Positions 527 through 1,969 of a stretch of 44,640 nucleotides of DNA are shown piece by piece. The stretch covers positions 1 to 44,640 of the forward strand of contig CAYJWH010000002.1 in NCBI GenBank assembly GCA_964373875.1, read 5' to 3'. This stretch comes from an uncultured Candidatus Saccharibacteria bacterium (lineage in GTDB: Bacteria > Patescibacteriota > Minisyncoccia > Sungbacterales > HO2-52-23). The notes below the pieces were generated by a model. That model saw only the letters and a program-made list of their open reading frames with translations. It did not search any database and was not told the DNA's origin. A program made the translations under genes and the position numbers. How positions within the stretch are numbered: position 1 is the stretch's first letter; each line of letters starts with the position of its first letter.

Positions 527-1969
527 TTAAACAACTTCCTCAATCCCCCCTTTCATATAAAACACATCCTCGGACTTGGAGTCGTGCTTTCCTTCAAGAA
601 TTTCCTTAAATCCTTTTATAGTGTCCTCTAGTTTTACGAATTTGCCGGAGCGGCCGGTGAAAGTTTCAGCGACAAAGAAGGGCTGAGAGAGAAATCTCTG
701 GATTTTGCGCGCGCGGGCCACAGTTAGTTTGTCCTCCTCCGAAAGTTCTTCCATACCAAGAATGCTGATAATATCCTGGAGCTCATTGTATCGCTGAAGA
801 ACACGCTGTACTTCTCGAGCCACCTGATAATGCTCCGAGCTTACAATTTTGGGATCAAGGGCTGAAGAAGTAGAAGCTAAAGGATCTACTGCCGGATAAA
901 TTCCAAGCTCGGTTAAAGCGCGAGAAAGAACGATGGTGGAGTCCAAGTGGCTAAAAGTAGTGGCCGGCGCGGGGTCAGTGATGTCGTCCGCCGGAACATA
1001 AATTGCCTGTACGGATGTGACCGAACCTTTTTTTGTAGAAGTAATACGCTCCTGCAGTTGGCCCATTTCGCTCGCAAGGGTTGGCTGATACCCGACCGCG
1101 GATGGCATACGGCCAAGAAGGGCCGATACCTCGGATCCGGCTTGCGAGAAACGGAAAATATTGTCAATAAATAACAAAACGTCTTTTGATTCCTCGTCCC
1201 GGAAATATTCGGCCATGGTAAGCGCGGATAGAGCCACCCGCAGGCGCGCGCCGGGAACTTCATTCATCTGTCCGAAAACCAGAGCGGTTTTATTGATGAC
1301 TCCCGACTCCTGCATTTCGCGATAGAGATCATTTCCTTCGCGAGTTCGCTCTCCCACTCCGGCAAAGACTGAAGCGCCTCCGGCCTCTTCGGCGACATTT
1401 CGAATAAGTTCGGTCAAAAGCACGGTCTTGCCTACTCCTGCTCCTCCGAAAAGACCTATCTTACCTCCTTTAATAAAGGGGGCCATAAGGTCAATAACTT
1501 TAATTCCGGTTTCAAAAACCTCGGTTTTGGTGGATTGGTCGGTGAAGGGCGGGGCTTTTCTATGGATCGGCCAATAAGTTGAAAATTTCGCGTCCTCCGG
1601 TCTGTCAATCGGATTTCCCAAAACATTAAAAAGGCGCCCCAGCACTTCTTTGCCGACCGGTACCTCAATCGGCTTGCCGGTATTCTCAACTTCCATGCCG
1701 CGCGTAAGACCGTCCGTGGGTGAGAGCGAAATTGTCCGCACCCGATTTGATCCTAAGTGGCGCGCTACTTCCAGCACAACGTCATTCTGAGTCGAAGACG
1801 AAGAATCTTTATGAGATCCTTCGCGTTGCTCAGGATGACGAACGGTGAGCATGTCGTAAATTGCCGGAAGTTTTCCCTGCCCCGTATCGTACTTGCTCTG
1901 GTGCGGGGCTTCCTCAAATTCTACGTCGACAACCGGGCCTATAATCTGTACTACTTTGCCTTTTTGCAT
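527..1969 (-). CDS. atpD: F1 ATP synthase beta subunit
   Basis: 480 aa with Walker A GGAGVGKT. Conserved blocks [14 protein letters not shown] and QAIYVPADD are present. It sits in the atpAGDC context. Confidence 0.97.
1781..1839. repeat. Imperfect 59-nt palindromic element lying in frame inside atpD
   Basis: GTCATTCTGAG...CTCAGGATGAC outer arms and GAAGAATC...GATCCTTC inner arms. On the atpD strand it encodes [20 protein letters not shown], extra relative to canonical beta N-domains. Confidence 0.6.

Follow-up and report, generated by a model that had tools for sequence, protein, structure and literature searches.

The atpD locus and its palindromic element

The DNA analysed here, called the window throughout, is a 44,640-nucleotide (nt) stretch of an uncultured Candidatus Saccharibacteria bacterium of the Patescibacteriota (assembly GCA_964373875.1, contig CAYJWH010000002.1), and this report concerns a palindromic element that lies in frame inside its atpD gene. 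The 44.6-kb window has core-genome content (atp genes, dnaK/dnaJ/hrcA, dnaB, recA, ftsK, rpoB, rpoC), and no transposase was found among its genes. Going by the names of the closest AtpD homologues, the genome belongs to the Patescibacteria/Parcubacteria, near Candidatus Sungbacteria. Residues 1–480 of AtpD match F1 beta chains in the PDB, with a best E of 2e-207, and its Pfam domains are PF02874, PF00006 and PF22919. Within this gene, a 61-nt imperfect palindrome is read as 20 residues (44–63). A first-pass annotation, made from the letters alone, had quoted the element at 1781–1839, described two complementary arm pairs, and likened it to the Rickettsia palindromic elements (RPE). The quoted sequence matched exactly on re-reading and both arm pairs are present, the outer arms being in fact 1 nt longer, at 12 nt, by an inverted-repeat finder. 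The features are listed below, where REP stands for repetitive extragenic palindrome and R1 for a covariance model trained solely on copies from other phyla.

atpD, 527–1969, minus strand: F1 ATP synthase beta subunit of 480 amino acids (aa), full length and without stops, with PDB and Pfam matches
Complete element, 1780–1840, minus strand: inverted dimer of two REP-like hairpin units with CGTC/GACG feet, residues R44–D63
Unit 1, 1813–1840, minus strand: C-type arm, first on the coding strand; R1 score 44.2 bits, E = 7.7e-9
Central spacer, 1808–1814, no strand assigned: TTTATGA between the units; its length and sequence vary across the family
Unit 2, 1780–1809, plus strand: T-type arm, on the opposite strand; R1 score 32.5 bits, E = 5.7e-6
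Loop insertion, 1877–1909, minus strand: 11 residues in the first loop of the same beta-barrel domain, separate from the element; a 33-nt gap in relatives

The outer arms, at 1780–1791 (CGTCATTCTGAG) and 1829–1840 (CTCAGGATGACG), are 92% complementary over their 12 nt. The RNA fold (71 nt) has an energy of -28.5 kcal/mol (z = -4.36), which none of 200 shuffles matches, and the DNA fold (61 nt) an energy of -15.1 kcal/mol (z = -4.44), which confirms the palindrome as real and beyond chance. R1 gave exactly two significant matches in the window, namely the two arms of the element, the next best having E = 0.66. Unit 1 reads CGTC-ATCCT-GA-GC-AAC-GC-GA-AGGAT-CTC, and its 26-nt arm recurs identically in Lachnospiraceae (L006) and Eggerthellaceae (L047). 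Unit 2 reads CGTC-ATTCT-GA-GTC-GAA-GAC-GA-AGAAT-CTT, with an apical stem longer by one pair, and extended-stem variants of this kind are also present in other phyla. The architecture predicted for both units is recovered in the minimum-free-energy fold. Two gapped arm pairs had been seen at first because both arms in the window are intact hairpins whose middles are mutually non-complementary; the non-complementary position of the outer arms and the mismatch of the inner 8-nt arms both correspond to a single position of the repeat unit, its covarying Y/R.

Since the contig was assembled from a metagenome, a chimeric read or misjoin might have put the repeat into atpD. An independent Logan assembly (L125) contains an identical copy of the gene, element included, related copies in this loop stem from different samples and assemblers (L001 and L002 from ENA, L003 from NCBI), and the reading frame is intact, which together leave an assembly or binning artefact a negligible chance. 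Copies orthologous or related to the window element lie at L001:1052-1112 and L003:10109-10169.

An inverted dimer of hairpin units

The element is better seen as an inverted dimer of a REP-like hairpin unit of ~28 nt, its two units standing head to head as in a REPIN-like REP doublet. This unit is laid out as a (T/C)GTC foot, ATYCTGAGC, a GNA loop, GCGAAGRAT and a CTC tail, and its stem has nine positions: A-T, T-A, Y-R, C-G, T-A, two tandem G.A mismatches, G-C and C-G. The Y of GTCATY complements the R of GAAGRAT within the same arm in 222 of 226 arms, while the two arms of one element differ in the Y/R letter in 57 of 104 elements. This makes each arm a hairpin in its own right, and it is on the hairpin of the single arm, and not on the long palindrome, that selection acts.

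The alignment of 82 distinct arms bears out this anatomy. Pair 7-23 is CG in 48 arms and UA in 30; cells changed on both sides number 34, against 12.8 +/- 2.4 in shuffled alignments, none of 500 shuffles reaching 34; and the unit structure outscores every slid register. Pairs 1 and 2 are AU and UA in all 82 arms, and positions 6 and 7 are invariant G.A mismatches, all of these being columns that the search pattern had fixed in part. Variation in the apical stem is compensatory (CG 48, GC 17, TA 5, TG 5), with two or more apical pairs in 74% of arms against 14% after shuffling, and in some arms this stem is lengthened by unrelated complementary sequence. Loops are mainly of 3 nt (GAA, GCA, AAA, GGA, GTA). 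The base preceding GTCAT is T in 188 of 250 arms (75%) or C in 41 (16%), with no conservation further out, and the tail has the consensus CTN.

A repeat family across bacterial phyla

One genome per species was scanned with a pattern that set only the 11-nt termini, GTCATYCTGAG-N30–50-CTCAGRATGAC (22 bases), and that demanded dimers; one singlet was seen (L128:1936-1963). The scan matched at least 120 loci. The first-pass annotation had named the consensus GTCATYCTGAGCGNAGCGAAGRATC of a widespread palindromic repeat, and this turns out to be a real and very widespread family, with at least 120 loci in at least 18 phyla and the consensus GTCATYCTGAGCGNAGCGAAGRATCTC - spacer - GAGATYCTTCGCTNCGCTCAGRATGAC. 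The interior was left unspecified in the scan, yet 226 of 254 arms (~89%) among the matches listed have GAAGRAT at the expected place. Record titles place the family in at least 18 phylum-level groups, cultured isolates included. Among the matches listed, these are Patescibacteria (five candidate phyla), Bacillota, Actinomycetota, Bacteroidota, Chloroflexota, Planctomycetota, Pseudomonadota, Cyanobacteria/Melainabacteria, Gemmatimonadota, Omnitrophota, Verrucomicrobiota, Bdellovibrionota, Acidobacteriota, Armatimonadota, Elusimicrobiota, Nitrospinota, Zixibacteria and Binatota. Cultured carriers include Flavobacterium, Pedobacter, Sphingobacterium and Lachnospiraceae, and a copy in a Rickettsiales metagenome-assembled genome (MAG), L019, is a member of the same family, which has no bearing on the classical RPEs.

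Across phyla, the element measures 53–72 nt and occurs in non-coding positions and in all frames. Some MAGs (Chloroflexota clean293, Planctomycetaceae co100_313) contain many copies of one subtype, the pattern expected of within-genome amplification. Contigs of related Parcubacteria have further intergenic copies at L127:201-276 and L128:1936-1963, the latter a lone, non-dimeric unit (CGTCATCCTGAGCGAATCGAAGGATATC) in the atpA–atpG spacer. In that contig, the atpG call in the database (361 aa) seems to start too early, reading through the lone unit.

Rfam gave no relevant match for the window copy at E <= 10 or for ten loci with canonical copies at E <= 1, and a blastn search of PLSDB plasmids returned nothing of the family. 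Only 12 stretches of IMG/VR viral contigs carry it, and phages are thus not its main carrier. A full-text literature search for the DNA and peptide strings returned chance primer matches only, and in the literature on palindromic elements in the candidate phyla radiation we found no description of such a repeat.

Insertion into a loop of the beta subunit

Among the 120 closest homologues, a typical AtpD has 454–461 aa and a loop of 6–7 residues at the element site, for example RIKKDKEIVTLEV in the element-free homologue P0004 (87% identity). When the DNA was aligned with that of P0004 and of two element-bearing relatives, the edges of the indel coincided with the edges of the palindrome, as the first-pass annotation had anticipated. 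P0005 has nearly the same nucleotides at the same codon position with the same junctions as the window; P0007 has nearly the same element nucleotides between other flanking residues (TPQS...EKPRK); and P0095 carries a copy in another AtpD loop, ahead of the WPxHR motif. Relatives that bear the peptide also have the palindromic DNA.

An excess of about 25 residues over the E. coli subunit had been ascribed for the most part to the 20-residue block. Against solved and related beta subunits, the excess is in fact split between two separate loops: the palindrome block, which replaces the native loop of 6–7 residues for a net gain of ~13–14 residues against close relatives and 7–10 against PDB chains, and an 11-residue block in the first loop. 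The 11-residue block at 1877–1909 is missing from all three close relatives aligned and holds a short GCCCCG...CGGGGC inverted repeat. In a structure model, the corresponding residues 21–30 of the first loop have a predicted local distance difference test score (pLDDT) of 56. Other relatives carry different inserts at this first loop, such as GGSLPDGRADASGGD in P0012.

In the same model, residues 45–62 lie between strands 39–44 and 63–73 of the N-terminal barrel, which is modelled well, and pLDDT falls below 50 for residues 53–60. Solved beta subunits in the PDB differ by 3–10 residues in length at this loop. These observations lend only indirect support to a surface loop of the host protein; the 20-residue loop translated from the atpD copy is probably disordered and is tolerated by the enzyme. 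Of the 120 closest homologues, 11 have an expansion at this loop, in part through hairpin-rich inserts unrelated to the repeat family, and it is therefore a tolerance hotspot. The longer inserts of P0084 and P0092 look partly related by eye, went undetected by R1, and were not counted as copies.

A native loop HPEGRE (K/R-HPEGRE; CAT CCG GAG GGA CGC GAA) occurs in P0070 (L126:3001-4368), P0057, P0088 and P0025. Its DNA is identical to the first 18 nt of the element arm at 15 of 18 positions, and the loop equals the window sequence less one clean block of 39 nt. It could be a deletion relic or a coincidence, given that loops of the x-P-E-G-x-x form are frequent among distant relatives and that HPEGRE has two origins in the tree. 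Searching proteins with the AtpD N-terminus yielded short fragments only, none bearing the element, and a metagenome scan for the atpD junction gave one chance match that is not atpD.

In each arm of the repeat, a TGA stop closes one frame and the other two are open. Open frame A reads VILSEAKDL / EILRFAQDD and is partly hydrophobic; open frame B reads HPERSEGS / DSS..QND and is hydrophilic. The window copy uses the hydrophilic frame (HPE-Q/R-R/S-EGS ... DSS..QND), and all verified in-gene copies have this reading with the C-type arm first: the atpD copies of P0001, P0005, P0007 and P0095, a copy inside the catalytic domain of GatB in a Levybacteria genome, and, in a Patescibacteria genome, a copy in the tail at the C-terminus of ribosomal protein L25. 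This pattern fits a filter that admits only copies with a length of 3n, a benign frame and a tolerant loop.

Besides its C-terminal copy of the element, the L25 gene of a Patescibacteria MAG (L025, ~1830-2680) has ~65 extra residues between its two Pfam domains, L25p ending at residue 71 and TL5_C beginning at 140. Within it, the stretch HLERSVAKSKDL...QAGARNDS looks like another, diverged copy of this repeat or of one related to it, on which R1 is silent at E <= 0.1.

Conservation at the DNA level

The element of the window and that of P0005 are 88% identical. Between these two genes, third-position identity is 0.89 inside the element and 0.44 outside, where fourfold sites stand at 0.35; the comparison with P0007 gives 0.84 inside, 0.45 outside and 0.34 at fourfold sites outside. 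First and second codon positions inside the element have identities of 0.84 and 0.95, next to 0.89 for the third. The excess identity stops at the element edges, with 13–15 of 17 third positions matching inside and 4–8 of 20 just outside. Since third positions are 84–89% identical inside the element against 44–45% in the rest of atpD, conservation acts at the nucleotide level: the element persists as a DNA-level entity near the family consensus, in a gene whose synonymous sites are saturated.

These figures bear on the idea that the 20-residue block extends the crown of the beta subunit as a lineage-specific adaptation, for instance as a contact for a partner protein, with the palindromic DNA being incidental. 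The expansion of this loop in 11 of 120 homologues would suit such a role, as would a hydrophilic peptide in the same frame in every in-gene copy. Against it, the third position is as conserved as the first and second, at twice the level seen elsewhere in the gene (0.44). The same DNA also occurs in non-coding positions and in all frames, with lengths uniform modulo 3, and the peptide is missing in sister lineages. We regard an adaptive loop as highly improbable.

In a neighbour-joining tree, every element-bearing AtpD has element-free sisters: P0001 groups with P0002, P0003 and P0004, P0005 with P0006 and P0020, and P0007 with P0010, these six partners being element-free with unrelated loops. 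Either the repeat has entered AtpD several times, twice at the identical site, or an old copy has been held and repeatedly lost. Repeated entry at the identical site needs a target preference. On the old-copy alternative, the consensus would have been kept by selection on the DNA or RNA or by gene conversion. The P0007 copy carries a compensatory G-C to A-T change in its apical stem, and the T-type arm of P0005 is partly decayed, at 23 bits against 32.5 in the window.

An old, vertically inherited insertion could have been kept by nucleic-acid selection if its hairpins served atpD, the candidate roles being a translational pause for folding or assembly of the beta-barrel, a site of mRNA stability or processing, or a protein-binding site in the DNA. 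The identical site and junctions in the window and P0005, the 88% identity of the element despite saturated synonymous sites, and the maintenance of the arm hairpins, including the compensatory change in P0007, speak for this explanation, and REPs have known effects on mRNA stability, termination and translation (PMC6006769). Against it, the closest relatives (P0002, P0003, P0004, P0006, P0010, P0020) lack the element altogether, one arm of P0005 is partly decayed, and the family is found as well in another AtpD loop (P0095), in GatB, in L25 and in intergenic DNA. A presence in at least 18 phyla needs no function specific to atpD. We consider this explanation, and with it the candidate roles, unlikely.

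Mobility and proposed explanation

Direct repeats flanking the copies are not above shuffled controls (at k = 4, for example, 1 against 0.6–0.7); a few values of k reach or approach the control maximum, most lie within the shuffled range, and we conclude that target-site duplications are absent. Across the family, element lengths are spread uniformly modulo 3 (45/38/45), so the family as a whole is without coding constraint.

A small element with 11–12-nt terminal inverted repeats and many copies in some genomes might be a miniature inverted-repeat transposable element (MITE), for which a DDE transposase would recognise those repeats and bring about the movement. Against this, target-site duplication does not rise above the shuffled control. 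Moreover, the covariation runs within arms and not between them, more than half of the elements have mismatched arms, units also stand alone (L128:1936-1963), and no transposase was found near 128 copies, within 1.5 kb. This origin is very unlikely.

We favour, with a probability of roughly 0.7, the explanation that the atpD element is a translated in-frame copy of a pan-bacterial REP-like repeat, a passenger moved in trans. [quoted passage not shown] The hairpin with its 4-nt foot would be the recognition unit, leaving no duplication, as in the REP/RAYT and IS200/IS605 systems. In a compact genome with little intergenic space, the surviving copies would be those with a length of 3n, a stop-free hydrophilic frame and a tolerant loop, and we infer that the peptide is a passenger without a function of its own. 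HUH/Y1 enzymes, such as the TnpA of IS200/IS605 and the RAYTs, use substrates of this type, hairpins that have a 4-nt foot and leave no duplication, and REP insertions in frame within genes have been reported (PMC6006769). Because the repeat shares these properties and CGTC/TGTC-footed REPs have no linked transposase, mobilisation in trans would best account for its spread.

Several points weigh against the passenger explanation. First, the mobilising enzyme, which would be of the HUH/Y1 single-strand type, is purely inferred. No HUH/Y1 gene was found in the 44.6-kb window; among 1428 open reading frames (ORFs) within 1.5 kb of 128 copies, a search for a linked gene gave a largest cluster of four loci, all housekeeping genes; and phmmer with one IS200 TnpA sequence returned no matches near the 128 copies. 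Second, the window contains one copy of the element, and the insertion site that it shares with P0005 is identical, which independent insertion explains only with target specificity; an old insertion under DNA selection or gene conversion would mean that the element is not a mere passenger. Third, several invariant columns of the arm alignment were imposed by the search pattern, and single arms do not reach significance in nearest-neighbour energy (z = -0.3 to -1.35), so that the arm hairpin rests on covariation, not on thermodynamics. Fourth, the structure model is poor overall, with a mean pLDDT of 63.8.

A crude HUH...Y motif was matched near the copies by two ORFs, neither with a Pfam match, and these were set aside.

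A bolder version of the proposal, which we hold only tentatively and consider doubtful, is that the 28-nt unit (YGTC-ATYCT-GA-GC-GNA-GC-GA-AGRAT) defines an undescribed pan-bacterial REP-like family read by one enzyme or host factor. Its near-identity in at least 18 phyla would then come from a single horizontally spreading enzyme acting on single-stranded DNA, or from a conserved host factor, and this interaction would keep copies like that in atpD to the consensus, through re-insertion at a favoured site, gene conversion or selection. If so, the essential genes of compact candidate-phyla-radiation genomes would be a long-term refuge for the element, and the element a recurrent source of new protein loops.

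Comparison with known systems

Rickettsia palindromic elements: Ogata et al. reportedly described these elements in 2000 as lying in frame in protein genes. The atpD copy is like them in being a palindrome in frame in a conserved gene whose ORF stays intact (60 nt, in a full-length F1 beta subunit), in being translated as extra loop residues that are thought to be tolerated in surface loops, and in residing in a bacterium with a reduced genome and little intergenic space. RPE-1 is ~100–150 nt long. The element here has 59–61 nt, its host belongs to the Patescibacteria/Parcubacteria, its family extends over at least 18 phyla and not one genus, and the two are likened by behaviour, not by sequence. 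The RPE precedent invoked at the outset thus stands for the mode of action, to which the in-frame copies in GatB and L25 also conform, and not for family membership; read as an analogy, the in-frame colonisation of an essential gene is supported.

CGTC-tagged REPs: The superfamily of Di Nocera et al. (2013) includes RPE-4 and RPE-6, and its CGTC/TGTC-footed REPs are mostly inverted dimers without a linked transposase, intragenic dimers encoding 20–30 residues (PMC3733652). The superfamily resembles the repeat studied here in its (C/T)GTC foot (the window copy has CGTC at both ends), in a stem of 8–9 base pairs (here nine positions opening with A-T and T-A), and in its intragenic dimers of 20–30 residues. 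The copies compared here were gathered with a pattern that demanded dimers, and no recurrent neighbour gene was found for them. The repeat studied here differs in a loop mostly of 3 nt (GNA) against 4–5 nt, in a tail CTC against CCA, in two conserved G.A mismatches in the stem, and in TGTC being commoner than CGTC; the families described are mainly from Alphaproteobacteria. The repeat lacks the loop-length and tail features of the four CGTC-tagged families, and its sequence was not found in the accessible text or supplements of PMC3733652.

REPIN/RAYT systems: In these, two inverted REP hairpins form a larger hairpin (PMC6006769), as in the atpD element. Further likenesses are genome-specific subpopulations, seen here as loop and apical variants recurring within one MAG, the lack of target duplication, and in-frame gene insertions. 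The foot is YGTC here and GT[AG]G there, and no RAYT gene was found adjoining any sampled copy (within 1.5 kb of 128 copies). A REP family is as a rule confined to one species or genus, whereas the present unit is near-identical across phyla.

Mini-hairpins: Oligonucleotides of the d(GCGNAGC) class are said, by Hirao and co-workers, to form unusually stable hairpins of single-stranded DNA. The apex of the unit, GC-GNA-GC, has this form (GCGAAGC, GCGCAGC, GCGTAGC, GCGGAGC). The mini-hairpins are biophysical model oligonucleotides and not a repeat family, and the likeness is one of sequence alone.

In-frame insertions of REPs and RPEs are already known. What is new here is the host gene and lineage, the covariation within arms, the nucleotide-level conservation inside an essential gene, and the pan-phylum spread. 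The surprise is that the unit hardly changes from phylum to phylum, an outcome not predicted by ordinary REP/RAYT co-evolution.

Selfish palindromes in essential proteins reach beyond Rickettsia, into the catalytic subunit of ATP synthase, GatB and a ribosomal protein of the candidate phyla radiation. The repeat explains many spurious 'hypothetical proteins' with VILSEAKDL, HPERSEGS, LRFAQDD and SFAALRMT signatures, and odd length variation of conserved proteins in MAGs. CGTC/TGTC-footed REPs are without a known mobilising enzyme, and the repeat is a tractable handle on that enzyme because it has a sharp definition, covariation behind it and carriers among cultured strains of Flavobacterium, Pedobacter and Sphingobacterium. 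The contrast between nucleotide conservation in the element and synonymous sites in the same gene is a natural experiment on a DNA element coexisting with protein constraint.

Other palindromes and insertions in the window

atpG (minus-strand ORF 2308–3261) contains at 2855–2888 a perfect palindrome of 34 nt, TCTTCGTCCGAGGCGGA followed by TCCGCCTCGGACGAAGA, which coincides with an in-frame insertion of eight residues (..VRGGSASDEER..) that the atpG genes of two relatives lack. Unrelated to the atpD element, it brings the palindromic insertions of this operon to two. In atpA (minus-strand ORF 3261–4838), two overlapping small hairpins at 4653–4682, TCCGCC-NNN-GGCGGA, share the core GGCGGATCCGCC with the atpG palindrome and encode 10 residues in the N-terminal barrel of the alpha subunit. 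This block is older, because the L003 relative has it too. A further insertion of eight residues, PDSTSSPR, lies at 4407–4430 of atpA by comparison with the L003 alpha subunit. Three intergenic palindromes, at 211–240, 4903–4940 and 16082–16127, have the core ACAAAT.CCACGCTA followed by TAGC.TGG.ATTTGT. They are located just downstream of atpC, downstream of a dksA-like gene, and between the convergent genes recR and rplU, and they look like a genome-specific family of terminator or REP-like hairpins.

Between atpG and atpD lies a 108-aa ORF without a Pfam match (1980–2306, minus strand). The relatives' ORF at this position is of unrelated length (185 aa in L003), and in L001 a 119-aa ORF resembling nucleoside deoxyribosyltransferase precedes atpD. 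Within the window, atpB, atpE, atpF and atpH are not adjacent to atpA. At 43825–44214, a 129-aa ORF has an intein-splicing/Hint domain (E = 1.4e-12) and adjoins a low-complexity stretch rich in GCAGC/GCTGC (44446–44640), which reaches beyond the end of the window.

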